A DNA stretch of 64,000 nucleotides from an uncultured Pseudomonadales bacterium (GCA_964441155.1 CAYYKL010000004.1:5103-69102), one strand, 5' to 3'. Positions 8,117-38,620 are shown, counted from the stretch's first letter. Numbers and translations: made by a program. Notes: generated by a model not told the origin, from the sequence alone.

Positions 8117-8132
8117 AAAAACTGGCTCGATT

Positions 8133-9107: not shown

Positions 9108-9372
9108 ATGTTTGCTTATAAGTGTTATATATATATTGTTATAAGCTTATATGTCAAGGAGCGCACTCCACAAATCAAGGTTTGTTCAGCTCTGTTTCAC
9201 CTATATATAAGACTTATTTTGAGCAAAATCGTTTCTAATTTCAAAGCGTATAGTAAATAATACTATTATGAATAATAGCATAACCTCTATATATATTTCT
9301 AAAGTATTTATAGCCTTGTGTATACCTATATAATGACTTATAATACGCTTTAATAACTATATATACAGGCCT

Positions 9373-11600: not shown

Positions 11601-11626
11601 AAAATACTACGCAATAAGGATTTGCT

Positions 11627-12541: not shown

Positions 12542-12571
12542 ATTTTCCTGACAACGTGCTCAACTTTCGAT

Positions 12572-14086: not shown

Positions 14087-14087
14087 T

Positions 14088-15719: not shown

Positions 15720-17001
15720 ACGATTTCTATCAGTGGCTATCGCCAGTTTTGTGGTGCTTTTTCCACATAAGGTGCATGCTGAGGCTCAACCTCGCTTGTG
15801 GAATATTCAATCAATCGACACCATGAAGATATCCCGAGATCGTTCAAAACAACAATTTAGCGATCAGCAAATAATTAATGAGTTAGAACTCGTAAAAAAC
15901 GCAGGTGCAAACTACGTCGGCATTGCCACTCCTTATGATGAAGAATTCTATCCAGTGCTCAAGCGATGGAGTGATTTAGCCCATCAAATGGGATTGTCAG
16001 TTTGGTTTAGAGGGAATTTTTCTGCTTGGGAAGGCTGGTTTGGTTATGAAAAAAACATGACTCGACAAGAGCATCTTACAAAAACCAAAGCTTTTATCCT
16101 GGCACATCCCAATCTATTCCAAGATGGAGATAGTTTTACTGGATGTCCTGAATGTGAAAATGGCGGTCCAGGCGATCCACGCACGACCCGAGACCATGTA
16201 GGACATAGACAGTTTTTAATTGACCAGTATGAAACAGCCAATGCTGCCTTTAAACAAATCAATAAACAGGTCGAAACAAATTGGTTTTCAATGAATGGAG
16301 ATATTGCTCGATACGTTATGGATAAAGCGACCGTGGATAAACTTGGTGGGCTGATAACTATCGATCACTATGTCGCCACACCAGAACAATTTGAAGCTGA
16401 TTTACTAAAGTTGCACACTGAGCTTGGTGCAAAAGTGCTTCTTGGAGAAATTGGCGTGCCTATTCCGGACATTCATGGCTCTCTTACCAAAGATGAGCAG
16501 GCGACACTTTTACCCAAATATCTGGATGTCATGTTGAAACATCAGAATTTTGTCATTGGCTTTAATTACTGGACACATCATGATGCTTCAACCGCAATTG
16601 CCAATAGTCAATTGCAGCCATATCCTGCCTATTACCGCTTGCAAGACTATTGGCAACCAGGGACCGTAAAAGGGCATATCGCTAATAATCTCATGGATCC
16701 TCTCTCAAACGCACAGATTAGTCATGCTTACGGCAACGCTCTGACGGATGAGAACGGTGATTATGAATTACTCCTTCCGGTAGGCGAATACGACTTAACG
16801 GTAAGTCGTGATGGTTATATCAGCCAAACGCACCGCGTAAAAATATTTGAATATTCCACCATGGATTTACCAATTTTTCTCGAACCACAAGAGCCAGGTT
16901 TTTGGTATAAAGCTAGAGAACGAATGCAACAATTGCTTGAGAATATGCGTCCAATTTCTCAACTTCCCCAACGGTTTCGACAGTTATTGTCAACGCGGTA
17001 A
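15706..17001 (+). CDS. Secreted TIM-barrel glycoside-hydrolase-like protein (clan GH-A-like) with a C-terminal carboxypeptidase-regulatory-like domain
   Basis: Signal peptide MKPIKRFLSVAIASFVVLFPHKVHA. ...VLLGEIGVP... resembles the GH-A nucleophile motif. C-terminal DENGDYELLLPVGEYDLTVSRDGYISQTHRVKI is a CarboxypepD_reg-like motif. Confidence 0.45.
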   Translation: MKPIKRFLSVAIASFVVLFPHKVHAEAQPRLWNIQSIDTMKISRDRSKQQFSDQQIINELELVKNAGANYVGIATPYDEEFYPVLKRWSDLAHQMGLSVWFRGNFSAWEGWFGYEKNMTRQEHLTKTKAFILAHPNLFQDGDSFTGCPECENGGPGDPRTTRDHVGHRQFLIDQYETANAAFKQINKQVETNWFSMNGDIARYVMDKATVDKLGGLITIDHYVATPEQFEADLLKLHTELGAKVLLGEIGVPIPDIHGSLTKDEQATLLPKYLDVMLKHQNFVIGFNYWTHHDASTAIANSQLQPYPAYYRLQDYWQPGTVKGHIANNLMDPLSNAQISHAYGNALTDENGDYELLLPVGEYDLTVSRDGYISQTHRVKIFEYSTMDLPIFLEPQEPGFWYKARERMQQLLENMRPISQLPQRFRQLLSTR

Positions 17002-17054: not shown

Positions 17055-17579
17055 CTAAATCGCAATAGCTCGGACGATTAAGCGCTTAGAATCTAGAAAG
17101 CCCGAGCAGGTATAGAGCGTTAGCGTGGGCTCCATGGTTTGTTGAATCCAAGAGATATCACTGGGATTTACTTCGGTAATGTGTTCAATTCGATAAGTAT
17201 GTTCGTTCTGGTTTTGATCGGTGACACTTATCCATTCGCCTGTTTTCAGTTCATCGAGTGACCCAAAAATGTGGGGATAGTTGTGGCCATAAATCACCAC
17301 ATTGCCGCCTGTCCCCAAACCAGCTGATTCACTTAAATAATTGCCCATGGTGTTGTCGACATACCAGGTGCCATCTGAAAGCTCGGTTCTCACCAAATTG
17401 ATATGTTTGCCTGAAGGCAATTTAATTTTCACCGGCAACAAGCGTTGTTCGAAGACCGGGCTTGAAATTCTAGGCGGCTGCTCTGTCCCTATAGTAATTA
17501 GACCTGAAGCAATAAACATCAAACCTATAACAAATAGGATTCGTAATGTATTTCGATAAATACGGGAACGCTTTGCCAT
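17055..17579 (-). CDS. Sortase (class E-like transpeptidase)
   Basis: N-terminal TM anchor, the conserved IYGHN histidine block, and the LTLYTC active-site cysteine (TLxTC). It lies immediately downstream of a LAXTG substrate gene. Confidence 0.75.
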   Translation of the reverse strand: MAKRSRIYRNTLRILFVIGLMFIASGLITIGTEQPPRISSPVFEQRLLPVKIKLPSGKHINLVRTELSDGTWYVDNTMGNYLSESAGLGTGGNVVIYGHNYPHIFGSLDELKTGEWISVTDQNQNEHTYRIEHITEVNPSDISWIQQTMEPTLTLYTCSGFLDSKRLIVRAIAI

Positions 17580-17604
17580 AATCTAGGTTATTAATTAACT
17601 GAAT

Positions 17605-18330
17605 TTACCGAGATTTTCTTGAAGCTATCCATGAGCCAAAGCTGAGCACTAAACCGGAAAACATTTTGATTGCGTCGGCATAGCCTGATCCCGTAAATGC
17701 GAGCTCGACAGCGGCAGCCACCTCATTTTGTGTTTCAGTCGTGTTCGAAGTCGTGCTTGCGCTTGTTCCACCAACACCAGAGCTAGTTGATGGCTGAGTC
17801 GTTGGTGTAGGTGTCGGATCAGGAGATTGTGTTGGGGTTGGACCAGGGATGGGTGTGGGAGTTGGCTCAACATCACCACATACAAATGACGTGTTTTGAG
17901 CTAAATATCGATAATCACCCAAATTCCATTGAAAACCATTTTCCACAAACCAGCCTTGCAATTCAGCTAATGTTTTCCACCAATTTGTTTGAATGCCATC
18001 ACTACCTTCTTCGGGGCAAAAGCATTGCACATAATTACCATTTTCCAAGGAATAGACGTCGTCACTTCCATATAACAATGGACCACCTACAATTTGATGC
18101 CAGCCTTGCTGCCAACTTGCGTGATCTCCTGGGTTTTGCAACAGTTCTTGACAAGCTGGAAATGAAGCTTCCGTTTCAGGAGTTGGTGTGGGTGTTTGAG
18201 TTGGTGTGATTTCAATCGAAGCAGACTCGCTTGAGTCAGTGGCTCGAACCAGATTAACGCCTTGCGCAAACGCACCAGACATCAGTACACTAGTGAATAA
18301 TAAGCTTGAAAAAAGTTTAGAGTTAGTCAT
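17605..18330 (-). CDS. Sortase-anchored surface protein (LAFTG sorting signal) with Pro/Thr-rich linkers and a Trp/Cys-rich central domain
   Basis: Signal peptide. PTQTPTPTP and PTPTPIPGPTPTQSPDPTPTPTT linkers. C-terminal LAFTG, then a hydrophobic stretch and an SRKSR tail, which is a canonical cell-wall sorting signal (LAXTG is the class E sortase motif). Confidence 0.7.
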   Translation of the reverse strand: MTNSKLFSSLLFTSVLMSGAFAQGVNLVRATDSSESASIEITPTQTPTPTPETEASFPACQELLQNPGDHASWQQGWHQIVGGPLLYGSDDVYSLENGNYVQCFCPEEGSDGIQTNWWKTLAELQGWFVENGFQWNLGDYRYLAQNTSFVCGDVEPTPTPIPGPTPTQSPDPTPTPTTQPSTSSGVGGTSASTTSNTTETQNEVAAAVELAFTGSGYADAIKMFSGLVLSFGSWIASRKSR

Positions 18331-22537: not shown

Positions 22538-22610
22538 GTGACCCCACAGGGAATCGAACCCTGGTTGCCGGGATGAAAACCCGATGTCCTAACCGCTAGA
22601 CGATGGGGCC
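22538..22610 (-). tRNA. tRNA-Glu (anticodon TTC)
   Basis: The reverse complement GGCCCCATCGTCTAGCGGTTAGGACATCGGGTTTTCATCCCGGCAACCAGGGTTCGATTCCCTGTGGGGTCA folds as a cloverleaf. The anticodon loop is TTTTCAT. No encoded CCA. Confidence 0.85.
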
Positions 22611-22694
22611 AGGGATAGACATGAGACGTCAGTGATAAGTCATTAGAATGTAATTTCTAACGACCCTAAGACCAAAGTCAAACGTCTAATCTTG

Positions 22695-22766
22695 TGAGCC
22701 CGGATGGGATCGAACCATCGACACAGAGCTTAAAAGGCTCCTGCTCTACCACTGAGCTACGGGCCC
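22695..22766 (-). tRNA. tRNA-Lys (anticodon TTT)
   Basis: The reverse complement GGGCCCGTAGCTCAGTGGTAGAGCAGGAGCCTTTTAAGCTCTGTGTCGATGGTTCGATCCCATCCGGGCTCA folds as a cloverleaf. Anticodon loop CTTTTAA. Confidence 0.85.
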
Positions 22767-23025
22767 GGATAAAATTCCGAGAGCATTTACTTGTCAAATA
22801 TTATTTCAATAATCCCACTGATGCCCTTACGGGCACTTGCGTCAGATATCCTTATCTGACTTCAGGCTACGGGCCCGAATAAAATTCCAAGGCATTTCTA
22901 TTTTAAATACACCACTTACTATCCCACTGATACCCTTCGGGTACTTCGGCCAATTTAAACGAATTGGTCTCAGGCATACAGGCCCAGAATAAATTCCGAG
23001 CCTGGGTATTATAGCGAGTCAAACC
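22757..23025. repeat. About 2.5 tandem copies of a ~110-bp unit; each begins with the first ~11 nt of tRNA-Lys (on the minus strand) and contains two hairpins
   Basis: ctacgggccc(g/a)ataaaattcc... recurs at 22757, 22867 and, degenerate, 22974. Both hairpins are retained in the two full units through compensatory substitutions. Confidence 0.6.
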
Positions 23026-23163
23026 CCACACAATCAACTAGGCAGACTCTTCTATCACCTCTGGAAGCAACCTCTTGACTTTTCGTCAAGCCCATCCCTA
23101 AGATGGGTAGGTGAGTAAATATCTTATCTACTCACGAATCAAAGCAGGAAGGGAGGTGAAATC

Positions 23164-24282
23164 ATGCAAATTAAATCTGCCCATTTATTAGGCGTCGCTG
23201 CCAGCTTCTTTCTAGCACTCGCAATGCTCGTTCCTGGAGCTCAAGCAGCACAAGTAAAAAACTTAAGCATAACCTTAAGTGATCCTAGACCGAATCCAAC
23301 AAGCACAACGCACACGTATTTGTTCACTCACGTGACTGCTGCAACACTCAAAATGATCAATTTTGAATACTGCACCACCCCGTCTGGAACATGCACTGCC
23401 CCTGCAAACGTTAACACCAGTTCTGCAACCGAAGGTACCCTAAGTGGTATTACGGCGGCACAATGGACATTAAACGTAGGTGTGGCTGCAAACCCCAAAC
23501 TTCAGCACACAGGTGCCGGAGAAGCCGTTTCAGGAAATACCGTTATGTCGCTTGGAATCGGTACAGTAACCAACCACGCAATTGATGACTGCCAGGCTGC
23601 TGGAGACACGTCGTCTGATACCTGTTATGTCCGTGTTACCTCGTGTACAGAAGTCACGAACTGTTCGTCTTCTGTCGCAACTAACAAGACTGATGAAGGT
23701 ATCGCCTCCTATACAGTCGTAGCCGCCGTCACGGTGACCGCTCGTGTTGATCCAACCTTTACGTTTGTGGTTAACTCAGTGGCTGCCAGCCAAGTGAACA
23801 ACGAAATCACGACTTCAGTTGCAAGTACGTTTAGCACGCTGCCTTTCGGCAACTTGACTGCCGGCACACCCAAATATGCCGCGCATCGCTTAAACGTGAC
23901 TACTAATACGCAAGCTGGATACACGGTATCCAACCGTATGGTAACTGCCATGACAGGTGTGTACGCAGGCAATAACATTGATCCGTTCACGCATGCCTGG
24001 AGTGCTGCCGCTGTCTGGACCGAACCAACGGGAACGGCCGCAAGCGTCAACACCGGCTGGGTCGGTGCGAATACAACCGACACTGATGTAGCCAACTGGA
24101 CCGCTGGTATGGCTCAAAAGTTCGGCGGTGTTACGAGTTCGGCTCAAACCGTCATGCAATCAAGCACCTCAGACAATGGTTCTAGTGGTGTCTATGTAAC
24201 TTATGCTGTAGAAGCGAATGTGTACCAACCAGCTGATACCTACACTGGTGTCCTGGTCTACAACGCTCTACCGACGTACTAA
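23164..24282 (+). CDS. Secreted Thr/Ser/Ala-rich surface protein; its C-terminal ~175-aa domain is paralogous to the C-terminus of ORF 24473..27316
   Basis: Signal peptide MQIKSAHLLGVAASFFLALAMLVPGAQA. The strong SD GGGAGGTG lies 7 nt upstream. The C-terminal ...ITTSVASTFSTLPFGNLTAGTPKYAAH...NNIDPF...WTEPTG...VYVTYAVE...PTY aligns with the end of the next gene. There are many N-x-S/T sequons. Confidence 0.6.
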   Translation: MQIKSAHLLGVAASFFLALAMLVPGAQAAQVKNLSITLSDPRPNPTSTTHTYLFTHVTAATLKMINFEYCTTPSGTCTAPANVNTSSATEGTLSGITAAQWTLNVGVAANPKLQHTGAGEAVSGNTVMSLGIGTVTNHAIDDCQAAGDTSSDTCYVRVTSCTEVTNCSSSVATNKTDEGIASYTVVAAVTVTARVDPTFTFVVNSVAASQVNNEITTSVASTFSTLPFGNLTAGTPKYAAHRLNVTTNTQAGYTVSNRMVTAMTGVYAGNNIDPFTHAWSAAAVWTEPTGTAASVNTGWVGANTTDTDVANWTAGMAQKFGGVTSSAQTVMQSSTSDNGSSGVYVTYAVEANVYQPADTYTGVLVYNALPTY

Positions 24283-24372
24283 TATGATGCCTTATTTGAT
24301 TGTTTTTAGAGGACGCCTCTCTTGAACTATCAAAACAAGCTCATGTTTTACGTCCGGATGTAAAACCAATAT

Positions 24373-24402
24373 CCCGCTGTAAGCGTTACAGCGGGATTTT
24401 TG
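24373..24402 (+). terminator. Intrinsic terminator after ORF 23164..24282
   Basis: CCCGCTGTAA-gcg-TTACAGCGGG followed by ATTTTTGG. Confidence 0.6.
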
Positions 24403-24472
24403 GTACTTCAGGTTACATACCAAGACATGTAGTCACTATATATGTGCTTAATGCGTTATGATGTTCTAGCGT

Positions 24473-27316
24473 ATGTCCATGAAATTTTTTCGTTTCGCAG
24501 CCATATTGTGTATGTGCTCTGGCCTAATTACCATGGTCGCACCTCGCCCTGCCCTTGCGGCTATCACCTCTGTTACGGAAGATTCAACCACCATTACCGT
24601 GAATGTCGCCAATAAATATCGAGCCATTTTTACCAAAGGCGATACAACTGACTATCTCAAGATTTATGATCGAGCCGAGGATGACAGTAATCCAGATCTC
24701 TTGCTGGAAGAGGTGGGACCATATATTTTTGAAGAAAACATTGATTACATGCTACGTTATGACCCCGGTCGCATCATGCAGATTGTCGAAGTCAGCGATA
24801 CTCGAGTTATCGTCGAAGCACGTGGTCATTTTTGTCGCACCGGCAATGAAAATTGTGTGGACGATGGCGCAGACGATATTTCAGTGCTAGCACTCTACAC
24901 CTTTACTCCAAATGGCATGTGGGTGAAGAACACGACTGATTTCAAAACCAGTGGCGTTGGACTTGATGCAACCGGAACCACCGATTCCTATAATTGGCTG
25001 AATCTTGAGGTTGATGGCACTGATGCCGCATTCTCGGACAGCGCATCTCCAGCAATCTATTATGGTGATGGGTCAACCGAAAGCTCAACCTCGACTGATG
25101 GAGATACCTTTGAAGATAGCAATGTCTATGTCGTCGCTCCCGGACAAGGCAGCTATCAATCCATGCATATTGGTGTAACTAATTGGCTCTCCATGGCCGG
25201 AGGTACCGATAATTGGCTTTGGGACGAAAACTTTTCTGGAACACTCGATAAACTAACCACACAGGAACAAGGGACAACACCAACGAGCACCAAAACTATG
25301 AGTTGGTTTGTTAGGTTTGCAACTCAAGGAGAACTAGATACCGAGAATGAACGTGAGGCAATTAGCAATGATCAGCGTAATCCGGATACACTTTCGTTTA
25401 CCACGGGTAGTGCGTGGCAAGAAGTAGGCAGCGATGATTTTAATGAATACCAAGGCACCTATACCGGTAATTTTTCGAGCAATGAATTATTGGTCGATCT
25501 CGACGGCAACACCTATTCTCGATTTTTCCCGCTGTGGAAGTTTAAAACCTGGAGATCAGTGAGTGCCCCCACATCAGCGAGCTTGGACGCGCTTTGGCTG
25601 GCCCCGGCAACAAGTTACAACATGAGCGTTCAACCAGTTGCGCATGCTTCCTGGGCACAAGATATTGCCCTCTACACCTCACTTGAATCCAGCGGTGCAT
25701 CAACGACACCCAACATTGGCCCTGCGGCAGGCAATGTTGACGGCACTACCACATTTGAAACGGGAATCTATGGGAATGGTGCACTCTTTAATACCGATGA
25801 TGAGCGAATCCGGTATGCCGGAGCTAATCTCACCTCCAATGCTTATTTTGACGCGGAGAGTGACTTCGGCACTATGGCGGTAGAGTTTTGGTTCAAACCG
25901 ACTAGCGACGATGACGCAGCCACGAACATGAATCTCTTTCGCATTGAGCTAGATGCAAGTAATGGCATGGGAGTGATCAAAAATTCTTCAACTAATCTTC
26001 GTTTGAGCCTGGAAACTAATGGCACCGCGTATAATTATCAGATTGCTAATGCCGACTTTTCAAGAATTTGGGAGGTCGGCAAATGGATGCATATTCGGGC
26101 TGTCTGGGACGACACGCAGGCCAACACAGATCAACAGAAAATATTTTTAAACGGGATTGAGCCCACACACACCGATCCAGGCACTGCATTTACTATTACC
26201 AATTTAACGAGTACGCCAAATGTAATCTTTATTGGAAATGGATCCGCTGGGACATCAGAAGCCAGAGGTATAATCGATGAATTTTATATCTACTCTGGAG
26301 CAATTCAACCCTTAGCTGCCGGAGGCAATACTGCTGATACTGACGAATATCTGAATGACACGAGCAGCGACTTTACTTTAAGCTTCGCCGATGACTCGAC
26401 CACCAACCAGGCAGAATATTTATTTTTAGGAGGTGAAACCAAATACACCGGCATAAATAGTTCATTGGCTACCCTTGGATCTGGCAGTTCACCTGCTGTT
26501 GATTGGGAGTATTGGAATGGGACGACTTGGAGTGCTCTAACGGTGACCGATACGACCAGCGGAGCAAATGATTTCACTGCCAGTGGCAATTTTTACTTTT
26601 CCGCTCCTTCGGATTGGGCTACTTATTCGCACTCTGCTTCACCTGAACTTTATTATGTCAGAGCCCACCTCGAATCAGGATCACTCACGACCAGCCCCGT
26701 TGAAGATACTATTCGCACCGATGCTGTTACGTTTCAATACTTAGGGAATGTCACAACTGCAGCCCAAAGTTTATCTTTGCCGTTAGAAAATCCATCAATC
26801 AGTTTTACCGTAAATGCAGTGCCTGGAAGTACTGCCACCAATGGAATTACTACGTCGGTAGCTAGCACATTCAACACCTTGCCATTTGGGAGCCTGGTCA
26901 TTGGCACGCCAAAATATGTAGCTCACCAGTTATCGGCTACCACCAATGCTCATTTTGGCTATGCCGTGACCATGAAACTCGTGAGCTACATGCAAGGCAA
27001 TTATCCGGGCAATAATATTGATCCGTTCATTGCGAGTTGGAGTATCCCCACCACCTGGACCGAACCAACGGGCTCAACTGCCAATGTGGACACTGGTTGG
27101 ATTGGTGCCAATACTTCAGACACCAGAGTAGCCAATTGGACAAGTGCTTCGGGACTGTTTGGCGGGATAACCAGCAGCGCGCAAACGGTAATGTACAGCA
27201 CGAGTGCTGATGACGGTAGCAATGTTTATGTGACCTATGCCGTAGAGGTGAACGACAAACAGCCGGCTGATCTGTATTCGGGATCGGTCACCTATACGAT
27301 TACACCCACATATTAA
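24473..27316 (+). CDS. Large secreted surface protein with a LamG/concanavalin-like domain and a C-terminal domain shared with ORF 23164..24282
   Basis: Signal peptide. ...MAVEFWFKPTSDDDA...GIIDEFYIYSGAIQPLAAGG resembles the LamG_3 motif (IDEvRIYNRALS). The last ~175 aa, ...ITTSVASTFNTLPFGSLVIGTPKYVAH...NNIDPF...WTEPTG...VYVTYAVE...PTY, are paralogous to the previous gene. Confidence 0.6.
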   Translation: MSMKFFRFAAILCMCSGLITMVAPRPALAAITSVTEDSTTITVNVANKYRAIFTKGDTTDYLKIYDRAEDDSNPDLLLEEVGPYIFEENIDYMLRYDPGRIMQIVEVSDTRVIVEARGHFCRTGNENCVDDGADDISVLALYTFTPNGMWVKNTTDFKTSGVGLDATGTTDSYNWLNLEVDGTDAAFSDSASPAIYYGDGSTESSTSTDGDTFEDSNVYVVAPGQGSYQSMHIGVTNWLSMAGGTDNWLWDENFSGTLDKLTTQEQGTTPTSTKTMSWFVRFATQGELDTENEREAISNDQRNPDTLSFTTGSAWQEVGSDDFNEYQGTYTGNFSSNELLVDLDGNTYSRFFPLWKFKTWRSVSAPTSASLDALWLAPATSYNMSVQPVAHASWAQDIALYTSLESSGASTTPNIGPAAGNVDGTTTFETGIYGNGALFNTDDERIRYAGANLTSNAYFDAESDFGTMAVEFWFKPTSDDDAATNMNLFRIELDASNGMGVIKNSSTNLRLSLETNGTAYNYQIANADFSRIWEVGKWMHIRAVWDDTQANTDQQKIFLNGIEPTHTDPGTAFTITNLTSTPNVIFIGNGSAGTSEARGIIDEFYIYSGAIQPLAAGGNTADTDEYLNDTSSDFTLSFADDSTTNQAEYLFLGGETKYTGINSSLATLGSGSSPAVDWEYWNGTTWSALTVTDTTSGANDFTASGNFYFSAPSDWATYSHSASPELYYVRAHLESGSLTTSPVEDTIRTDAVTFQYLGNVTTAAQSLSLPLENPSISFTVNAVPGSTATNGITTSVASTFNTLPFGSLVIGTPKYVAHQLSATTNAHFGYAVTMKLVSYMQGNYPGNNIDPFIASWSIPTTWTEPTGSTANVDTGWIGANTSDTRVANWTSASGLFGGITSSAQTVMYSTSADDGSNVYVTYAVEVNDKQPADLYSGSVTYTITPTY

Positions 27317-27859
27317 CTAGAGAATTTGTTTGTTTGCTGATATATCAAATTGCACAACTTTGGTCGTGGGACCTTGTTGCAGGGTGACTTGCACTAGGCC
27401 GTCTTTGCGTGGCAAGAAAAATTCATAGACAAAACTTCCACCAGCTGCAGGCTTAACGGACTTCATCTCCACTGCATGCCCAAGTACATTAGTATCTGCT
27501 GAGGCTGACGCATTAATTTCTTGTGGCAACAATGATTCGGGGGGCAGGACGGTCGCCGAAATAGTGATAGCCACTTGAGATTGGGGTGCTAATCCCGCCA
27601 CTTGCAGTCTGCCCGAATCGCTTGCATAGGCGACACTGGTGACTTCAATCGGTGAGGCTGCATCTTTTGGCGCGCTTTTTGGCTGACTCTGCATTGACTC
27701 AAGCATCTTTTTTAAATCTTCTACTGTAGCAGCATCTTTAGCGCTCGTTCCGGTGGTTGATTTGGCATCGGATTGTTTGCTTAGGGTTGCCGCGACAAAA
27801 ATCCCTACAGGGAGCAAGAGTAAAAGCAAAACGAGCAATAATTTATCTACGATTCCCAT
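27317..27859 (-). CDS. Hypothetical membrane-anchored protein (N-terminal poly-Leu TM segment, Ser/Ala/Thr-rich linker)
   Basis: 180-aa ORF with the LLLVLLLLLLPVGIFVAATL anchor. No recognisable domain. Confidence 0.35.
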   Translation of the reverse strand: MGIVDKLLLVLLLLLLPVGIFVAATLSKQSDAKSTTGTSAKDAATVEDLKKMLESMQSQPKSAPKDAASPIEVTSVAYASDSGRLQVAGLAPQSQVAITISATVLPPESLLPQEINASASADTNVLGHAVEMKSVKPAAGGSFVYEFFLPRKDGLVQVTLQQGPTTKVVQFDISANKQIL

Positions 27860-27916: not shown

Positions 27917-28699
27917 ATGCGTGCTGAATCTAATCACACTCTACCACCACATGCAAGCAAGAGCGCTCGCAAGGCAACCGCACAACGCATAACGTTTGTC
28001 GTTGGGCTTATTTGTCTCATTATAGGGATAACATTCATACTCGCCCTGAAGCGGGCAAGCAGCCAGGCGAAAGTCAAGGGAACCGCAACCCAACTATCAG
28101 CTTCACAAGTGCTGGCTCACGTAAACCTTCTGCGTCAAGAATTAGGCATTGCTCCTTTAGTTGTTCATCCCTCACTTGAGCAGGCTGCCGCGCAAAAAGC
28201 TGCCCACATGATCGATAGTGGCTATTGGGAACACACCGATCCCAATTCAGGCATTACCCCGTGGCAATTTATCGATGCCACTGGATATCGGTATGCAAAA
28301 GCTGGGGAAAATTTGGCTCGTGATTTCGATGATTCTCAAAAAGTCACTGAGGCTTGGATGGCCTCACCTCCACACCGAGCCAACTTGCTCGAATCTGCCT
28401 ACATGCATACGGGCATCGGCATCGCGTATGGCATGAGAAGCGATCAACCCACCGTGCTCGTGGTGCAACTGTTAGCCAAACCACTATTGCTACATGAGAC
28501 AGAAAGAACAGGCGAATTTATGTCCACTGCTGCCGTTGCCCCGCAATCAACGCCCACCATTATGCTTATCTTTGCCGGGGGAATACTTTTTGTCGTAGTG
28601 GGCTTGGGGGTACTCATGCTCTCAAGGCGCAACAGTGCACAACAGGTTTCAAATCGCCAGAGCAATAACGCCCCGCCCCTACATCTATGGAGCACATGA
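27917..28699 (+). CDS. CAP/SCP/PR-1 domain protein (YkwD-like) with a C-terminal TM anchor
   Basis: ...AHVNLLRQELGIAPLVVHPSLEQAAAQKAAHM...GENLAR...HRANLLESAYMHTGIGIAYG matches the bacterial CAP-domain family. Confidence 0.75.
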   Translation: MRAESNHTLPPHASKSARKATAQRITFVVGLICLIIGITFILALKRASSQAKVKGTATQLSASQVLAHVNLLRQELGIAPLVVHPSLEQAAAQKAAHMIDSGYWEHTDPNSGITPWQFIDATGYRYAKAGENLARDFDDSQKVTEAWMASPPHRANLLESAYMHTGIGIAYGMRSDQPTVLVVQLLAKPLLLHETERTGEFMSTAAVAPQSTPTIMLIFAGGILFVVVGLGVLMLSRRNSAQQVSNRQSNNAPPLHLWST

Positions 28700-31151: not shown

Positions 31152-32648
31152 GTGCGTGACACGTGTTATGATAAATGCCTCATGCACCCTGGCTTGACTC
31201 GAATCTTCAAAAAGCATCCAGTACACCTCATCATTGCAGCGAGCGTTATCGTTAGGTTTGGATTTTTGCTGGTGTCAAACCATCTCTATTATCCGGATGA
31301 AATTTTTCAAACTCTTGAACCGGCATTTGCACATATTTCTGGATTTGGTATTGAAGCTTGGGAATACGAAGCGGGAATTAGACCGTTATTTGTGCCCTTG
31401 CTTTTAAGTCTCCCGTTAAAGGTTTTTTATATGGTATCTCGAGGAGACCCGCAGGTATATACGCTGCTCATGAAATTGTTTCTCTCCACTTGGTCGATTG
31501 TTATCCCTCTTGCAGTCTTTCAAGTAGTGAAAAAATCACATGCAGACGCTCGTCGTGCAAATCACTATGCGCTTCTTTCTGGCTTACTAACAGGGGTTTG
31601 GTTTGAGCTTATCTATGTTGCTCCCAGAGCCCTCTATGAAACACTAGCGCTAAATCTCATAGCAAGTGCCTATCTCGTCTATACGCGCGCTGCAACTCAC
31701 AAAGAAAAGTCACTGAGTAAAGAATTTGGATATGCTTTTTGCGCAAGTCTCGTGGCTTTAACGGGAGCAACCAGACCGCAATTTCTGGTTGTATTTCCCA
31801 TAGGGCTCTTGTGGTTTTTTAACCAAAACACATGGGCAAAAAACAGATTGCTATTCGGTGGCTTGTTGACCGTGCTCGCAATTGGGGCTCATGAATACTC
31901 GCAAACGGGCTTTTTTATGCATAGTTTTTTGCGATATATTGAACTGCAGCTGACTACACCCATAAGCGACATTTTCGGGGTCCAATCATGGCTCTATTAC
32001 CCTAAAGCACTTCTGGCTACGAGCGGGGCATTGTTTATTCCAGCCATAATTACTCTTAAAAAGAAAGTCAGCAGGTCTTGGTGGTTGGCACTCATTGTTC
32101 TGGTTATAAGCCATAGCGCGCTACCTCACAAAGAATTGCGCTTTATCTTGCCCATTGTGCCCATAGTGATGATACTATTTGGCCAAAGTCTTGACCTTTG
32201 GCATCAAACAGCGAAGCGATTCACAAAATATCTGCCAGAAGTTTTAACTGGTGCTGCGCTACTTATGAGCATATTATCGCTTCTTTATGTTTTTCCTTGG
32301 TCTAAAGAGTACTACACAGTGCCATTTCTTTACAGAGATTCACTGCTTAAAACTGCTAATGTTTTGCATGAGGATTCGAGTGTCTGTGGAATATATGATG
32401 AATCACGAACTTGGCCAATTTCTCTGAGTTATTATCTTATAAACCGTAATGTACCGCTGTATAACCAAGATTATCCGCCGCCCAACCTGGATGTGATTAG
32501 CCATCAACTCACGCAGGTAGGTGACTCGATCGCGGTTTCAGTAAAACAACCGGCAACGTGCGCAACCGACCCAGCTTACACCAACAAGCGTTCGTTTCCA
32601 GCAATTCAATCGATCGTAGAAGAGTACCAATTCTCAAGCGTAAAGTAA
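31152..32648 (+). CDS. GT22-like (Alg9/PigB/PimE-type) integral-membrane mannosyltransferase
   Basis: Multi-TM protein. The first loop HLYYPDEIFQTLEPAFAHISG matches the GT22 hallmark (HPDEhFQSlE). Confidence 0.55.
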   Translation: MRDTCYDKCLMHPGLTRIFKKHPVHLIIAASVIVRFGFLLVSNHLYYPDEIFQTLEPAFAHISGFGIEAWEYEAGIRPLFVPLLLSLPLKVFYMVSRGDPQVYTLLMKLFLSTWSIVIPLAVFQVVKKSHADARRANHYALLSGLLTGVWFELIYVAPRALYETLALNLIASAYLVYTRAATHKEKSLSKEFGYAFCASLVALTGATRPQFLVVFPIGLLWFFNQNTWAKNRLLFGGLLTVLAIGAHEYSQTGFFMHSFLRYIELQLTTPISDIFGVQSWLYYPKALLATSGALFIPAIITLKKKVSRSWWLALIVLVISHSALPHKELRFILPIVPIVMILFGQSLDLWHQTAKRFTKYLPEVLTGAALLMSILSLLYVFPWSKEYYTVPFLYRDSLLKTANVLHEDSSVCGIYDESRTWPISLSYYLINRNVPLYNQDYPPPNLDVISHQLTQVGDSIAVSVKQPATCATDPAYTNKRSFPAIQSIVEEYQFSSVK

Positions 32649-34271
32649 TCGAATATATTCATCCAGCATCCGCTGCGTCGTAAATCGCTTGGATAATTCT
32701 AAAGTTTTTTTCATCCGCGCTAACCAACCCTGAGGCACATTATTTTGATCACGGTCATAATACAGTGGCACAATATCTTTTTCGAGGCGCAGGTAGAGTG
32801 TTGGAGCCAAGTGATTAGAGTCAAGTGACCAACCCATGTCATGCCATTCGACTTCCGCTGCCCAACCATCTTCTACGGTCAACTGCAAAACACCATTGGC
32901 GATTGCTTTCATGCCTGAAGTACCTGATGCTTCTTCACCGTATATTGGAGTGTTGAGCCACACATCCACACCTTTTACGAGGTGATTGGCCACATCCATA
33001 TTGTAGTTTGGAATAAACAGAGCGTGACCCTCTAGTTCCGTCTTCATCAGTTTAATCATGTCGGCAAGCAGTTGCTTGGCAGTAATATCACGAGCGTGTG
33101 CTTTGCCACTTAACAAGAATTGCACGGGTCGATCTGCCTGCATAAGAATTGCCTTCATTCGAGCAATATCTTCAAAAATCGCATTTGGTCGTTTATAGGT
33201 GGCAATTCTTCTTGCCCATCCGATAACCAATCGATTTGGATCGTATCCTGCTCCCGTTTTCTCGTTCACAAAATTGGCCAAATTTTTCTTAAGTTCTAAG
33301 TGATTCCACCACAGCTGATCACCAGACAAGTCAACTTGCTTAATGCTTTCATCTTGCCAAGTTGGGTGATGGACACCGTTGGTGATACCCACCCAATCGT
33401 ATTCCGGCCAAAGAGTTTTGGACAATTCATAGTGAATTTGGCTCACCGCTGAAGCTTTGCGCGAAATATTAAGTGCAAATTGCGTCATGCTAAAAGCACC
33501 CGTTGAAGGGTCAAAACCAGGGGCGAGCAATTGTTCGATAGTGACTCCCATTTTCTGGGCATAGTAGGTAGCATTGGCCTTAAGAAGGTCAACGTCAAAC
33601 GAATTGTTTCCCGCACGAACCAGAGTGTGATTGGTGTAAACGATTTTAGATTGTGCTTTTGAGCGCGCTTCTTCGTAGGTTAGGTGATCCTGATCCATGT
33701 ATCCTCGAATCAACTGCCAAAAGAGAAACGCTGGCCTGCCTTCATTGACGTGATACACCGATGGTTCGATTTTCAAAGCTCTGAGTACTTTAATACCGCC
33801 AATACCCATAACCATTTGCTGCATTAACTGCTCTTCTTCTGAGCCGTTGTAGATAGCACAGGCAATTTTTCGATCGTTCAATTCATTTTGATCGGTGTCA
33901 GTATCGAGCAAATAGAGAACCACCTGACCAAATGATTTTTTCCAAACCCGTGCCCAGACGTTTTTATTGGTGAGATGAATATTTACGAATAATGGTTGTT
34001 CATCGGCAGCGTAGACATGTTCGTAACCTAGCTTAACTGGATCAACTTCAACATCAACTTCATATTGCATGCCGTTCTCATCGACCTGTGCTTGGTTGCC
34101 ACAGCCACGATAAAGCAACCCCAATGCCACCATGGGTACGTTTGAATCTGCAGCTTGTTTAAGCGTATCACCGGACAATATGCCCAAACCACCGGCATAC
34201 AAGGGCAAGTCATGAGACAAACCAAATTCAGCACTAAAATAGGCAATGGGATGTTGAGCAGTTGGTTGCAT
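32634..34271 (-). CDS. glgP: Alpha-glucan (glycogen/maltodextrin) phosphorylase, GT35
   Basis: N-terminal AYFSAEFGLSHDLPLYAGGLGILSGDTLKQAADSNVPMVALGLLYRGCG and the PLP-lysine region SGKAHARD..AKQLL are characteristic of alpha-glucan phosphorylases. Confidence 0.85.
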   Translation of the reverse strand: MQPTAQHPIAYFSAEFGLSHDLPLYAGGLGILSGDTLKQAADSNVPMVALGLLYRGCGNQAQVDENGMQYEVDVEVDPVKLGYEHVYAADEQPLFVNIHLTNKNVWARVWKKSFGQVVLYLLDTDTDQNELNDRKIACAIYNGSEEEQLMQQMVMGIGGIKVLRALKIEPSVYHVNEGRPAFLFWQLIRGYMDQDHLTYEEARSKAQSKIVYTNHTLVRAGNNSFDVDLLKANATYYAQKMGVTIEQLLAPGFDPSTGAFSMTQFALNISRKASAVSQIHYELSKTLWPEYDWVGITNGVHHPTWQDESIKQVDLSGDQLWWNHLELKKNLANFVNEKTGAGYDPNRLVIGWARRIATYKRPNAIFEDIARMKAILMQADRPVQFLLSGKAHARDITAKQLLADMIKLMKTELEGHALFIPNYNMDVANHLVKGVDVWLNTPIYGEEASGTSGMKAIANGVLQLTVEDGWAAEVEWHDMGWSLDSNHLAPTLYLRLEKDIVPLYYDRDQNNVPQGWLARMKKTLELSKRFTTQRMLDEYIRLLYA

Positions 34272-34424
34272 ATAGAATTATTTCTTCTACGGTAAGCTTA
34301 ATCGCAAAACCCATCACCTGTAAAGGGCAAGCTTTACCAATTGACCTAGGAATCTTTCAGTTCGTAAAAATCTGCTATAGTTAAGACACGCTACAAAAAT
34401 GCATGAAATGAAGGAGAGTTTCCC

Positions 34425-35459
34425 ATGGATAGTTTTGCTGCCCACTTATCCGAACTAACCAACAAAACAGTGCTTATTCGATGTAATTTCGATGTGCCAG
34501 TCGACAAGGGTAAAGTTGTCGATACAACCAGGATCGAGGATGCACTACCAAGCCTCAAACTACTCAAAGAAAATAACATTCGAACAATCATCGTGGCTCA
34601 CTTAGGCCGACCAGATGGAGCGTTTAATGCCTCTTATTCGCTTAAGCCCATCGTGACAGTTCTGGAAAACATGATTAGTGCGAAGATCGGCGTGTTGGAC
34701 TACAACAAAGACATGAGCGTCGTGCTCAAGCAAGCGGAAACTCTAACAGAGTCAATATTACTTTTGGAGAATATTCGATTCTGGAGTGGAGAAGAGAATA
34801 ATGATCAAGATTTTGCGACTGACCTAGCCACATTAGGCTCAGCGTACGTCAACGAATGCTTCGCTACCTGTCATCGCAAACACGCCTCCATGGTTGGTTT
34901 GCCAAAGCTTTTACCTCACTATGCCGGCATTTCACTCGCAAAAGAAGTAACGACCCTCAATCGAGTTAAGCACCATCCAGAACATCCATTCGTGGTCGTA
35001 ATTGGTGGAGCAAAACTAGAAACCAAAGAACCCCTCGTCAATGCTTTCGTTACTACCGCCGACACGATTTTAGTGGGAGGCAAAGTCGCTCTCGATCTCA
35101 AGCTGCACCCTGAACCATTACCAGCCAATGTAGTTTTGGCCGAGCTGGAACCGCACGGCAAAGACATAACTAAAACATCTGCTGATAGATTCGCTGCCAT
35201 TATTAACGATGCGGCACTCATTGTGTGGAATGGGGCCATGGGTGTATTTGAAGAAGATGAATATGCGCAAGGAACTAAAATTGTAGGCAAGGCCATGGCA
35301 GAAACTAAAGGTTTTAGTGTGGTAGGGGGAGGGGACACCGAAACTGCACTTACTCAGTTTGATCTTGAATCAGGGATTGATTTTATTAGCACCGGTGGTG
35401 GAGCAATGCTTGAATACCTTACCCAAAGCAGTTTGCCAGCACTCGTTGCTCTCGGGTAG
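34425..35459 (+). CDS. pgk: Phosphoglycerate kinase (compact form)
   Basis: ...VLIRCNFDVPVDKGKVVDTTRIEDALPS...AHLGRPDG..., C-terminal GGGDT and ISTGGGAMLEYL. The 344-aa length comes from internal deletions, not truncation. Confidence 0.8.
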   Translation: MDSFAAHLSELTNKTVLIRCNFDVPVDKGKVVDTTRIEDALPSLKLLKENNIRTIIVAHLGRPDGAFNASYSLKPIVTVLENMISAKIGVLDYNKDMSVVLKQAETLTESILLLENIRFWSGEENNDQDFATDLATLGSAYVNECFATCHRKHASMVGLPKLLPHYAGISLAKEVTTLNRVKHHPEHPFVVVIGGAKLETKEPLVNAFVTTADTILVGGKVALDLKLHPEPLPANVVLAELEPHGKDITKTSADRFAAIINDAALIVWNGAMGVFEEDEYAQGTKIVGKAMAETKGFSVVGGGDTETALTQFDLESGIDFISTGGGAMLEYLTQSSLPALVALG

Positions 35460-35473
35460 AATAAACATTACGT

Positions 35474-36163
35474 ATGCGTCAATCTCACCAAGTGTCAATA
35501 ATTCTCATACTGGTTTTTACTCTTGGACTCATAAGTGCGCATCTGCTAGTTCTACGATCTATTAATCGTGAAAGTGTTGTTCCCGCACCCTCACAATCGC
35601 TGCAAAAAGTTATTCAACCAAATGCTTTTTTCTACTCAGGTGTTGTGGCTAAACGAAACCAAACGCAGGTGAGTGTCAATTATTCGATGAGTGATTATCC
35701 CCACGTCATGCACTTGGATTTAATTGTTCCCGATGGGACTCAAACTATCTCACGCCTTATAACTCACCCCATACTTACGTCTTTACCTTGGGAATATGTC
35801 GAGTCAAATGGTATTCGGTTGTATCAAAAAACTAAAATATATCAATCTATCGACCAATTCGCTACCAAGCCTGCTGCCGGAAAAACGATTCTGGCTGACG
35901 AAGCGCTCATCCTTACCCCTGCCTACAAAGACTTGAACGCCAAACCATTAAATGAATTTGCTAGTCTTGATGGCATTGAGTATATTTTGACCACATATGT
36001 GCCATCACAACCATTGGGCACTGGACATCGGTATCAAACAATCTTGGATTCAAGCAGCGCACTCGTTAATCTTAAAAACGAGCTTGTTTGGCATATTCGG
36101 ATTCCAACCGCCACTCTAGAACATCCCTTATATTTAGGGGGTGTTGAAGTGAATTACCAATAG
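35474..36163 (+). CDS. Hypothetical N-terminally anchored extracytoplasmic protein
   Basis: 229-aa ORF with a single N-terminal TM. No family recognised. Confidence 0.3.
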   Translation: MRQSHQVSIILILVFTLGLISAHLLVLRSINRESVVPAPSQSLQKVIQPNAFFYSGVVAKRNQTQVSVNYSMSDYPHVMHLDLIVPDGTQTISRLITHPILTSLPWEYVESNGIRLYQKTKIYQSIDQFATKPAAGKTILADEALILTPAYKDLNAKPLNEFASLDGIEYILTTYVPSQPLGTGHRYQTILDSSSALVNLKNELVWHIRIPTATLEHPLYLGGVEVNYQ

Positions 36164-36290
36164 CTGGGGTATTGACACTTCCAGGCATTGGTCTATCCTT
36201 AAAAAGGAATAAAATATATACAAAGCCCTTTAGTTCCGTCTTATTTGACAAACTGCCAAAGTTTGGAATAATAGTTTGTAGCACCACAAC

Positions 36291-37241
36291 ATGAACAAAA
36301 GCTATTTGCAAACGCTTTCCATCGCTGCCTTCCTTGGAATAGTCGCATCTTTATCAGCGATAATTTTTGCATTTTCTCCCGCGCGAGCCCAAGAACAAGG
36401 CAAAGCAATTACGGTAATTCCTCCCCGTTTTGAACTGTTTGCTAATCCCGGTGAAACCGTAACCGAGCGCATCAGGGTCCGAAATGAATCTGATTTTCCT
36501 GTCAATTATGCCGTAGTCATAGAAGATTTCACAGCTGCTGGCGAAGAAGGGCATGTGGTGTTAGAAGAAGATTCTAATACGAACTTTTCCCTAGCCAAAT
36601 GGATGGAACCAGAATCAAAAGAGCTTATTCTCCAACCTAAAGAGGAGCGAGCAGTTAGCTTTAGGATAAACGTTCCCCGAAGTGCAGAACCAGGTGGTCA
36701 CTACGCTTCGGTGCTATTTTCTTCGGCCGGCGAACAAACTCCCGGGTCTGCTGCCGTAACCCAAAGAATTGGTTCCTTGGTTCTATTGAGAGTCTCAGGC
36801 AACGTCACCGAAAATGCCACCATAGAAACGTTTGAAGCGCCATCATATTTACAAAATGGGCCAGTGGAAATTTCTCTACGTGTCAAAAATGAAGGAAATG
36901 TCCACGTGAGACCAAAGGGCACGATTATCATCACCAATCTTTTCAATAAAAAAGTTGATGAAATTCCCTTAAACGGTTCCAACATTATTCCTGGATCGGT
37001 TCGCAAAATGATTACCACCTGGGACAAAAAGAACATCCTCGGTGTCTACAAAGCAACGATGGTTTCCACCTACGGAGAGCAGAACGTGCCACTCACAGCA
37101 GCGACTCGGTTTACGGTCGCTTCACCCATTGCCCTAGCACTTATCGGTATTGGGTCAATTGCACTTCTCATCTTTTTACTCTCCTTGGTGAGTGGGCGCA
37201 AACGCCTCGGCAAGGCCTTCAAAGCGCTTTCAAGCGACTAA
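36291..37241 (+). CDS. Cell-surface protein with two CARDB/DUF11-like beta-sandwich domains and a C-terminal TM anchor
   Basis: Signal peptide. PGETVTERIRVRNESDFPVNYAVVIEDF and GPVEISLRVKNEGNVHV are CARDB/NEW3-like motifs. C-terminal IALALIGIGSIALLIFLLSLVSGRKR. Confidence 0.45.
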   Translation: MNKSYLQTLSIAAFLGIVASLSAIIFAFSPARAQEQGKAITVIPPRFELFANPGETVTERIRVRNESDFPVNYAVVIEDFTAAGEEGHVVLEEDSNTNFSLAKWMEPESKELILQPKEERAVSFRINVPRSAEPGGHYASVLFSSAGEQTPGSAAVTQRIGSLVLLRVSGNVTENATIETFEAPSYLQNGPVEISLRVKNEGNVHVRPKGTIIITNLFNKKVDEIPLNGSNIIPGSVRKMITTWDKKNILGVYKATMVSTYGEQNVPLTAATRFTVASPIALALIGIGSIALLIFLLSLVSGRKRLGKAFKALSSD

Positions 37242-37336
37242 ACGTTCTAACTAACAAAGTTGCTTGAATTGTCCGTACCCCTTGCTTCTCAATCCATATA
37301 CAATGATGTTGTACCGTTTATTAATCAAGCGGCTAG

Positions 37337-38578
37337 TTGTTAGTGGCAACAGTAATGAAGCGCATTGCATTATTAGGCATTCTCACTTTCTCGGTCATAG
37401 TCACCTATGTTTTTGGAGGGCGCGTTGGCGCAGCTGGAAGCCTGAATGAGCTCTCTGACCTCATCAACAACGATGAAGTCAGCACACCTGCAGAGCATTT
37501 AATAAGTTTTCAATTACCAATTACATCTGAAGCAATTGTAAGCACTGACTATATTCATGTATACCTGGCGGGATATTCGAATGTGACCGCCCCAACCTCG
37601 TTGAGTGGTTCATATTCAGGCACACCAACCTTTTCCGTTTCAGGCAATTATGCTCGAGTGACTGGCATTGGCCTAAGTCCCGGTGTATCTTTGACTATTG
37701 GCGGCATTACCGCCACTAATCCTGCTACGGTTGGCGGTTTCCAAGTTATAGTTTCAGTTACTGAAGATGAAGCTGGTTTATTAGTTAAAAATATTAGCAA
37801 TATTGTGGCCATCAGGGGAGGCAGTGCCATAACGGTAAGTGCCATGATCGATACACCCAGCGCGTCGGTGTTGTTTTCTGGCTACTCTGCTCCAAACACC
37901 TTTATCACCTTTACCGAAGATGGCACGGTGCATGGCACTGATATCACCAACGAACTAGGCTTTTTCTCCAAACTTTTGACCGGTCTTTCACCTGGAGATC
38001 ATAGTTTTAGTTTGTATGGTGTCGATTGGATCAACTTAACCACAGCTCCACACGTCATCAATGTATACGCACCCATATACACCCAAACAAATATTACCGA
38101 CATATTGTTATCACCCACACTTCAAATAAGTGATAACGAAATTCTCCAAGGCGAAGACATTGTGGCCTCAGGCTCAGCCAAGCCTGACTCAAACATCACC
38201 ATCTTCACCGAAAGCCCTCTTAGAACTTACTATGCTACAGCCACCAGCTCAGGAGCTTGGTCATACACCATCGACAACACTGACGAGTATGTCGTTGGTG
38301 ACTATACCATGTATGCACTGGCTCAAGACGATTTTGGCGTGCAAAGCTTTGTGAGCATTGCACTCGGTTTTAGCGTAGTTTCGGCAACCAGCGGATCAGG
38401 CACTGCCTGTGGCGATATTACTCGCGGGGACTTAAACTGTGATGATTCTATCAATCTAACCGACTTTTCTATTCTTATGTACTATTGGGGCACTGCCAAC
38501 GCAACTGCAGACATGAACACTGACAGCGTAGTCAATCTCACCGACTTTTCGATACAAATGTATTGGTGGGGGACGTAA
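37337..38578 (+). CDS. Secreted protein with Ig-like repeats and a C-terminal dockerin (type I-like) module
   Basis: Signal peptide. The C-terminal duplicated calcium-binding segments GDLNCDDSINLTDFSILMYYWGT and DMNTDSVVNLTDFSIQMYWWGT fit the dockerin repeat pattern (DxNxDxxxNxxDfxxhxxyW). Confidence 0.55.
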   Translation: MLVATVMKRIALLGILTFSVIVTYVFGGRVGAAGSLNELSDLINNDEVSTPAEHLISFQLPITSEAIVSTDYIHVYLAGYSNVTAPTSLSGSYSGTPTFSVSGNYARVTGIGLSPGVSLTIGGITATNPATVGGFQVIVSVTEDEAGLLVKNISNIVAIRGGSAITVSAMIDTPSASVLFSGYSAPNTFITFTEDGTVHGTDITNELGFFSKLLTGLSPGDHSFSLYGVDWINLTTAPHVINVYAPIYTQTNITDILLSPTLQISDNEILQGEDIVASGSAKPDSNITIFTESPLRTYYATATSSGAWSYTIDNTDEYVVGDYTMYALAQDDFGVQSFVSIALGFSVVSATSGSGTACGDITRGDLNCDDSINLTDFSILMYYWGTANATADMNTDSVVNLTDFSIQMYWWGT

Positions 38579-38620
38579 AGCCAAACAAATGCTTGACGTG
38601 ATTGCAATTACCTCTCATGA

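Follow-up and report, generated by a model that had tools for sequence, protein, structure and literature searches.

Adjacent Genes for Probable Pam-type Pilins with a Common C-terminal Module in a Microgenomates-like Bacterium

The DNA considered here is a stretch of 64,000 nucleotides deposited under an uncultured Pseudomonadales bacterium (GCA_964441155.1 CAYYKL010000004.1:5103-69102). The whole stretch is referred to as the window, and positions are counted from its first letter. Two adjacent genes within it encode secreted proteins of 372 and 947 residues that end in the same module, and the pair probably specifies subunits of a Pam-type pilus, exported by Sec, in a Microgenomates-like bacterium of the Candidate Phyla Radiation (CPR). 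Pam pili were first described in 2026, and the locus belongs to a widespread, sequence-distant and head-diversified branch of their family. The initial annotation, made from the sequence of the window, had proposed that the two proteins share an anchoring or assembly module bearing different heads, and that they are S-layer or envelope glycoprotein candidates. The first of these proposals is supported by the family at large; the second gives way to a pilus subunit assignment.

The reference system comes from Candidatus Mycosynbacter amalyticus, whose filaments, resolved by cryogenic electron microscopy (cryo-EM), led to the pilins PamA and PamB (Troman et al., bioRxiv 2026, 10.64898/2026.03.03.709456). 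In each pilin one strand, the linker, connects an N-terminal beta-sandwich of nine strands to a truncated immunoglobulin-like (Ig-like) C-terminal domain, which takes up the linker of the adjacent subunit. PamA and PamB carry signal peptides, contain paired cysteines and rank with the most abundant proteins of the cell; their conservation peaks in the linker and its binding site, and a serine of PamA bears extra density. Also in the Pam operon are genes for chaperones of the PapD/FimC type, anchored in the membrane by a C-terminal helix and presumed to assemble the subunits; ATP synthase genes are conserved neighbors of Pam loci. Homologues from Microgenomatia, with ~21% similarity, were detected only via a language-model search. 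The pili are thought to mediate host contact by this cultivated CPR parasite (10.64898/2026.03.03.709456).

The Gene Pair and Its Common C-terminal Module

The two predicted pilins and their parts are as follows.

23164..24282, plus strand: small (major) predicted Pam-type pilin, 372 residues; open reading frame (ORF), NF058581 match, AlphaFold2 model.
Small pilin, layout by inspection: signal peptide, residues 1-28; N-terminal beta-sandwich, ~29-190; predicted acceptor domain, 207-372.
Small pilin, residues ~191-206: linker and putative donor strand, VTARVDPTFTFVV.
24473..27316, plus strand: large, head-bearing predicted Pam-type pilin, 947 residues; ORF, profile match over residues 720-945.
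Large pilin, layout: signal peptide, residues 1-29; head, 30-772, with LamG domain; linker and C-terminal domain, 773-947.
25865..26308, plus strand: residues 465-612 of the large pilin, a LamG/concanavalin-A-like lectin domain within its head.
26789..27313, plus strand: module copy in the large pilin (linker and C-terminal domain), 59% identity with small-pilin residues 196-372.

Both ORFs were verified at these coordinates. In a BLASTP alignment, the last 177 residues of the small protein (196-372) pair with 773-947 of the large one at 59% identity and 75% similarity (E = 4e-63), so that the common module claimed by the initial annotation is confirmed, together with all the motifs it had quoted and the PTY end of each protein. 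By tblastn, the window holds exactly two copies of the module, each preceded by other domains. Outside the module, the LamG-like domain that had been noticed in the larger ORF is a firm match to Laminin_G_3 (Pfam PF13385; E = 1.3e-13, 51.8 bits against a cut-off of 27.6). Both proteins are rich in Thr and Ser (27% of the small and 23% of the large protein), and by inspection both begin with Sec-type signal peptides (..PGAQA|A in the small protein, ..RPALA|A in the large one), in keeping with their description as secreted.

Each protein has a single NCBIfam match, which lies in the module and is to a pilus subunit domain, NF058581 (CPR_Pam_pilin_C, Pam pilus system pilin subunit). In the small protein the match covers residues 224-372 (E = 1.5e-6, 28.4 bits, positions 4-148 of a 148-position profile), and in the large protein residues 802-947 (E = 5.5e-5, 23.3 bits). 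Scanned singly, 39 of 55 relatives match the same profile (best E = 2.4e-9), and no other family recurs among them; Pfam recognizes no family in the small protein. Sequence searches of the Protein Data Bank (PDB) with the small protein, its family profile and the head of the large protein returned nothing useful.

Predicted Fold and Conservation

An AlphaFold2 model of the small protein, built on an alignment of 55 sequences, has a mean predicted local distance difference test score of 93 and comprises two beta-rich domains, with strands at residues 32-186 (first domain), 199-204 (linker) and 237-370 (second domain). Foldseek matches it to two-domain Ig-like adhesins (FnBPA, SdrD/SdrG, Srr1) and integrin legs, and also to two-domain pilus tip adhesins (CfaE, FocH, FimH) and Ig-like pilins. 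The whole two-domain model finds only such generic Ig-like adhesins and pilins, with low whole-chain template modeling scores. A pilin-like fold had been among the possibilities raised at the outset, and both the pilus subunit family match and the adhesin- or pilin-like shape of the model point to it.

Conservation in the pilin family peaks in the linker, a pattern also described for PamA and PamB. Mean column conservation is 0.74 in the linker, 0.65 in the C-terminal domain and 0.45 in the N-terminal domain, and the best-conserved segment of all is residues 191-200 of the small pilin (VTARVDPTFT, 0.85). Pro197 is invariant, and Phe199 and Phe201 are almost invariant. The linker of the large protein (NPSISFTVNAV) retains the alternating pattern of the small one (VDPTFTFVV). 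In the N-terminal domain, Cys143 and Cys154 are invariant, and two more cysteine pairs are present.

Distribution of the Module and Its Variable Heads

A full HMMER search with the family profile against a library of 1.84 billion protein representatives gave 1986 cluster representatives at E <= 1e-3 and 255 at E <= 1e-30. The matching proteins have two architectures. Those of ~360-400 residues match the profile from end to end; those of 530-1105 residues match only positions ~187-367. In both, whether it follows an N-terminal domain of ~160 residues or a large variable head, the module lies at the extreme C-terminus, and 293 copies were recovered among the collected proteins and loci. Since the large proteins match only these profile positions, and always C-terminally, the linker and C-terminal domain are a unit reused across proteins, which bears out the notion of one assembly module with different heads.

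Full-length relatives of the 947-residue protein are rare. Elsewhere the second gene carries heads of ~400 residues without known domains, heads that combine LamG with DUF2341, or a PD40-type beta-propeller. As the head differs between lineages, an adhesin role is suggested for the large protein. The named sources of the family include Microgenomates, Beckwithbacteria, CPR2, Patescibacteria and contigs labeled Saccharibacteria. Ten related loci (L006, L007, L009, L010, L012-L016 and L025) have CPR-type gene content under titles that read Gammaproteobacteria or Pseudomonadales, and such labels are not to be trusted. Two of these loci carry paired small-pilin genes (10001-11056 and 16782-17873 in L012; 3145-4197 and 10004-11065 in L013), ~5.7 kb apart and interleaved with split ATP synthase genes, and a large pilin gene follows only the second of each pair.

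Expression Signals

The signals around the small pilin gene are listed below.

23075..23104, plus strand: promoter-like TTGACT-18-TAAGAT upstream of the small pilin gene.
23111..23135, plus strand: stem-loop GTGAGTA...TACTCAC (inverted repeat I1) at the predicted 5' end of the pilin mRNA.
23151..23158, plus strand: perfect Shine-Dalgarno sequence GGGAGGTG, 5 nt upstream of the small pilin start codon (ATG).
24345..24366, plus strand: hairpin GTTTTAC-GTCCGGAT-GTAAAAC, 7 bp, in the pilin 3' untranslated region.
24371..24402, plus strand: intrinsic terminator between the small and large pilin genes, hairpin 24371-24397.

The Shine-Dalgarno sequence GGGAGGTG, singled out by the initial annotation as the strongest in the window, occurs there once. 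Most related loci have a GGAGG-type site ahead of the small pilin gene; the large gene is without any. The terminator consists of a 12-bp stem (6 G-C pairs) followed by a T-run, and the first gene does therefore end in a hairpin of its own, as had been proposed. Of 15 adjacent gene pairs examined, 12 have a hairpin and T-run at this position. Their stem sequences are unrelated, and they differ in two relatives (loci L041 and L042, with pilins 87% and 83% identical to the small pilin). The large gene of the window has neither a promoter-like site nor a Shine-Dalgarno sequence before it, and the separate transcription initially assumed for the two genes is not borne out. Because a terminator between the genes and a ribosome-binding site on the first gene only recur across lineages, the layout supports a model in which many shaft subunits and few large ones would be made. 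High expression of the first gene is favored by the same conserved arrangement. In the pap operon, the gene for the major subunit likewise comes first and is followed by a terminator that reduces expression of the later genes.

The promoter-like TTGACT-18-TAAGAT keeps both hexamers and their spacing in L041 and L042, and to that extent the initial prediction stands; it matches the consensus at 9 of 12 positions, and such sites are no rarer in the window (11) than in shuffles (7.4 +/- 3.1). The leader (23066-23166) folds better than shuffled sequences (z = -2.85). Within it, the stem at 23111-23135 is preserved in both relatives, with a two-sided change in L042, and may act as an mRNA stabilizer. 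The two inverted repeats that had been pointed out, CTTGAC/GTCAAG and CCCATC/GATGGG, are present upstream of the small pilin gene and, in contrast to the repeat at 23111-23135, show no compensating changes in L041 and L042. They are not kept in relatives, and an operator or structural role for them is therefore unsupported.

Between the pilin stop codon and the terminator lies a 32-nt block (24340-24371, CTCATGTTTTACGTCCGGATGTAAAACCAA) that contains the 24345-24366 hairpin. The block is identical in L041 and L042, where the flanking intergenic sequence diverges. Rfam contains no family matching the leader or the intergenic region, this hairpin included. A second promoter-like site, TTGATT-18-TATAAT (10 of 12 positions), lies at 23008-23037 on the minus strand, oriented away from the pilin gene in a block conserved in L041 and L042; it is probably the promoter of the genes for tRNA-Lys (22694-22766) and tRNA-Glu (22538-22610).

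A Candidate Chaperone and Its Cassette

A chaperone candidate is encoded farther downstream, as the middle gene of a cassette of three.

35474..36163, plus strand: membrane-anchored protein of 229 residues, first cassette gene.
36291..37241, plus strand: candidate pilus chaperone of 316 residues, WxLIP/DUF916 family.
37337..38578, plus strand: secreted protein of 413 residues, third cassette gene.

The 316-residue protein has a signal peptide, two beta-sandwich domains with a predicted PapD-like fold, and a C-terminal transmembrane helix. It matches Pfam WxLIP_PGBD/DUF916 above the cut-off, and its order of DUF916 domain, second Ig-like domain and C-terminal membrane helix is that of WxLIP proteins. 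The sole low-confidence segment of its model, residues 82-95, is overlapped by an invariant run (D79, F80, G84, E85, G87, V89, L91 and E92). Because this loop (residues 79-95) is conserved and yet disordered in isolation, it can be read as a strand that would become ordered only when donated to a partner.

L005, L020 and L028 show all three cassette genes in this order, and L009 shows the first two, after which the available sequence ends. The 229-residue protein has no family match and no similarity to the pilin family. The gene for the 413-residue protein always follows the chaperone-like gene. The first 33 residues of the mature protein resemble the start of the pilin N-terminal domain (hhalign Prob 74%, E = 2.8e-5); the protein continues with Ig-like repeats and a linker-like segment, ends in a C-terminal dockerin (Dockerin_1, 26.8 bits) and has no acceptor domain. 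It may be a donor-only subunit that terminates or anchors the filament, a role to which these features lend weak support.

Gene Neighborhood

The neighboring genes referred to here are the following.

27317..27859, minus strand: convergent protein of 180 residues; membrane segment at the N-terminus, small beta-rich domain.
27917-28699: CAP/YkwD-family protein of 260 residues with membrane segments at both ends.
17055..17579, minus strand: sortase of 174 residues.

The arrangement in related loci runs from the ATP synthase operon through a DUF87/TrwB-type ATPase to the small pilin, the large pilin and a convergent gene for a membrane protein of ~175 residues, followed by genes for a CAP-domain protein, PPDK, GT22 and a phosphorylase. 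ATP synthase genes flank the pilin pair in most of these loci, and all the genes that lie downstream of the pilins in them are also present in the window. In 10 related loci the gene after the large pilin, on the opposite strand, encodes a homologue of the 180-residue protein; the protein itself has no family match and no similarity to the pilin profile. In most Microgenomates-type loci, the CAP/YkwD gene is conserved as the next one beyond the pilin pair and the convergent gene.

Glycosyltransferase genes are dense at 2486-16998 and 31152-40914 (GT2 and GT4 families), with a PMT_2-like GT-C at 14055-15719 and an Alg9-like GT22 at 31152-32648, and TMEM260-like GT-C genes lie close to the pilins in L001 and L005. 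O-glycosylation of the Thr/Ser-rich pilins is possible. The sortase gene lies directly downstream of a gene for a secreted Thr/Pro-rich protein of 241 residues (the pair spans 17055-18330, minus strand). The C-terminus of that protein, LAFTG followed by a hydrophobic segment and RKSR, marks it as a sortase substrate unrelated to the pilins.

Proposed Assembly Mechanism

The data establish the common module, its family, the predicted folds, the pattern of conservation and the gene contexts. A scheme can be drawn from them in which filament formation, subunit order, chaperone action and adhesion by the head are inferred. Both pilins would be exported by Sec. The C-terminal domain would be an Ig-like fold one strand short, and the linker of one subunit would fill the groove in the C-terminal domain of the next, as in donor-strand exchange. 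The 372-residue protein would serve as the abundant shaft subunit, polymerizing head to tail. The 947-residue protein would be produced from terminator read-through or a weak promoter only. In it, the small N-terminal domain is replaced by a large head with a LamG lectin-type domain, and for that reason it is likely to be adhesive, a low-copy subunit that would set the binding specificity of the pilus. The membrane-anchored PapD-like protein (36291..37241) probably caps subunit grooves before incorporation, with the loop at residues 79-95 as the likely capping strand.

Several observations weigh against this assignment. All NF058581 scores, including those of Saccharibacteria-labeled loci, are 16-28 bits and fall below the curated cut-off of 55 bits. 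No Pam structure was found in the PDB searches, and the fold is likened to PamA and PamB by their description. Donor-strand exchange is itself deduced from homology and conservation. The large protein, which keeps a linker-like strand, could sit either at the filament tip or interspersed along the shaft. Neither a single-domain tip subunit (PamT-like) nor an RbmA-like anchor (PamR-like) occurs in the window.

The genomic setting raises two further objections. The candidate chaperone gene lies 9 kb from the pilins, with metabolic genes in between. Homologues of it stand directly beside a pilin gene in L020, L026, L027 and L028; in L020 and L028 the cassette immediately follows the pilin gene, and in L026 and L027 DUF916-type genes lie on both sides of it. 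Because cassette or DUF916 genes adjoin the pilin in these loci, the gap is read as a lineage-specific insertion of metabolic genes into an otherwise single cluster. Also, there are no ATP synthase genes in the 64-kb window, nor is there a DUF87/TrwB-type ATPase gene anywhere in it. Compared with L001, L003 and L006-L015, the apparent breakpoint falls at 22538-23163, where the ATP synthase and ATPase genes have given way to genes for two tRNAs, a serine hydrolase and an APH-type kinase. As ATP synthase adjoins the gene pair in most relatives, the linkage was probably broken at the tRNA genes (22538-22766).

Alternative Explanations

The best-surviving alternative, which we nonetheless consider unlikely, is a WxL-type surface complex that forms no filament and in which the module is a non-covalent anchor to the cell wall or a scaffold, held one-to-one by the membrane-anchored WxLIP-like protein so as to display a small protein and a large lectin-headed one. 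WxL clusters encode one WxLIP (DUF916-DUF3324-TM) and two further proteins, one small and one large, each ending in a WxL domain; in AlphaFold2 models a disordered WxLIP loop becomes a strand that completes the WxL beta-sandwich, and WxL proteins are described as bound to peptidoglycan and not filamentous (Hassan et al. 2023, PMC10599100). The cluster architecture is thus the same as here, for example in L033, a Lactococcus plasmid locus encoding a 376-residue WxLIP and WxL proteins of 238 and 922 residues. Collinear motifs can also be seen, by eye only, in the two modules (LPFG, N...GY.V and Y.G.l.Y..l.P against l.FG, D.RG..GW.L and Y.t.l.W.L...P). Against such a complex, the module matches the Pam pilin model, whose members have been seen as filaments by cryo-EM, and the best-conserved element is the linker strand before the domain, which fits donation from subunit to subunit better than one-to-one docking. 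In addition, small WxL proteins do not have the whole extra domain that the small protein carries at its N-terminus. Pfam WxL matches none of the 55 family members, and three hhalign set-ups comparing the module with WxL domains gave P = 0.23, 0.054 and 0.017, none significant (controls: N-terminal domain, 0.2-0.3; positive Actinobacteria-versus-Firmicutes comparison, 5e-5).

Considerably less probable is a pair of S-layer or envelope glycoproteins in which the module anchors two N-glycosylated lattice proteins, the reading initially favored. Secretion, the high Thr and Ser content of both proteins, the signals for very high expression on gene 1 and the glycosyltransferase-rich neighborhood would all suit a lattice protein. 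Neither Pfam nor NCBIfam, however, gives an S-layer/SLH-type match at E up to 1, and the only family match for the module is a pilus subunit domain. The N-glycosylation argument had relied on N-x-S/T sequons, given as 9 in the small protein and 17 or more in the large one; the former count is right, and the latter is 15. Against 20,000 composition-matched shuffles, neither is enriched (9 against 6.7 +/- 2.2, P = 0.20; 15 against 13.9 +/- 3.2, P = 0.42). The argument falls, because sequon density is no higher than composition predicts. Nor are the glycosyltransferase genes consistently linked to the pilin pair in relatives.

A sortase-assembled pilus of the Gram-positive type, polymerized covalently by the sortase at 17055..17579, is hardly tenable, as neither an LPXTG-like motif nor a hydrophobic tail nor a basic end is present at the PTY termini. 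The sortase has a substrate of its own next to it, with LAFTG, a membrane segment and RKSR at the C-terminus, and in related loci it is unlinked to the pilin pair.

Implications

If the Pam-type reading holds, a constant joining module with interchangeable heads (LamG, DUF2341, beta-propeller) is the signature expected of host- or ligand-specific adhesins, and therefore offers a handle for predicting the attachment targets of uncultivated CPR cells. A strong ribosome-binding site, a terminator and a weakly translated large gene would together give a simple account of subunit stoichiometry. Membership of the chaperone in the WxLIP/DUF916 family ties the system to the poorly understood WxL surface proteins of lactobacilli, enterococci and Listeria and provides a testable hypothesis on how WxL proteins are assembled.

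Comparison with Known Systems

The locus resembles the Pam system of PamA and PamB in its CPR setting, Sec signal peptides and paired cysteines, and in having the linker and C-terminal domain as its best-conserved parts. Both systems have two pilins of unequal size with a common C-terminal domain, signals for high expression and a PapD-like chaperone, here a candidate, whose C-terminus forms a membrane helix; in relatives of the present locus, ATP synthase genes lie close by. There are also differences. Sequence similarity is distant and lies below the curated cut-off. Here, two adjacent pilin genes stand on their own, without recognizable PamT-, PamE- or PamR-like genes, and there is one chaperone candidate, 9 kb downstream. 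The second pilin carries a variable LamG head of 740 residues, whereas lectin- or adhesin-headed subunits do not figure in the description of Pam pili (10.64898/2026.03.03.709456).

Chaperone-usher pili (Pap/Fim, with FimH, PapG and CfaE) offer the parallel of an incomplete Ig-like pilin domain completed by a donated strand, a PapD-fold chaperone, and an adhesive subunit made of a head and a pilin domain. The present system differs in having no usher and no outer membrane, a membrane-anchored chaperone and a two-domain shaft subunit; no usher family was found among the window proteins scanned. Its donor strand would be an internal linker between two domains, and not an N-terminal extension.

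The third comparison is with WxL clusters. Here too, a small and a large protein have a common C-terminal module, with binding domains placed N-terminally on the large one, and the WxLIP loop is paralleled by the conserved low-confidence loop (residues 82-95) of the 316-residue protein. The aromatic motifs differ, being GY.V and Y..L instead of W.L, the small protein additionally possesses an N-terminal domain and a linker, and no adjacent gene encodes an LPXTG partner. No PDB entry for a WxL-domain structure was found by sequence, as was the case for Pam, and the description of Pam pili mentions neither WxL nor DUF916 (10.64898/2026.03.03.709456). DUF916-type genes extend beyond the Firmicutes, to actinobacterial plasmids (L029, L038, L039) and Deinococcus plasmids (L030, L040), where they lie between a gene for a small secreted protein and one for a large LamG, RICIN or carboxypeptidase-regulatory protein. 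A WxL-like module at the C-terminus is common to the RICIN protein of Streptomyces and the small proteins of Clavibacter and Cellulosimicrobium.

As whole systems, the locus in the window and the WxL clusters run closely parallel. Homology of the chaperone candidate to the WxLIP/DUF916 family is demonstrated; homology of the PTY module to the WxL domain is not. A tentative view, possible and on balance somewhat doubtful, is that Pam pili and the WxL clusters of Firmicutes and Actinobacteria are one ancient family of surface systems of single-membrane envelopes. A membrane-anchored PapD-like WxLIP/DUF916 protein would cap an incomplete Ig-like C-terminal module by strand donation. The module would be borne by one small protein and one large, head-bearing protein, and the PTY module would be the CPR counterpart of the WxL domain. 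Were this so, WxL proteins would be chaperone-dependent, strand-exchanging subunits that possibly polymerize.

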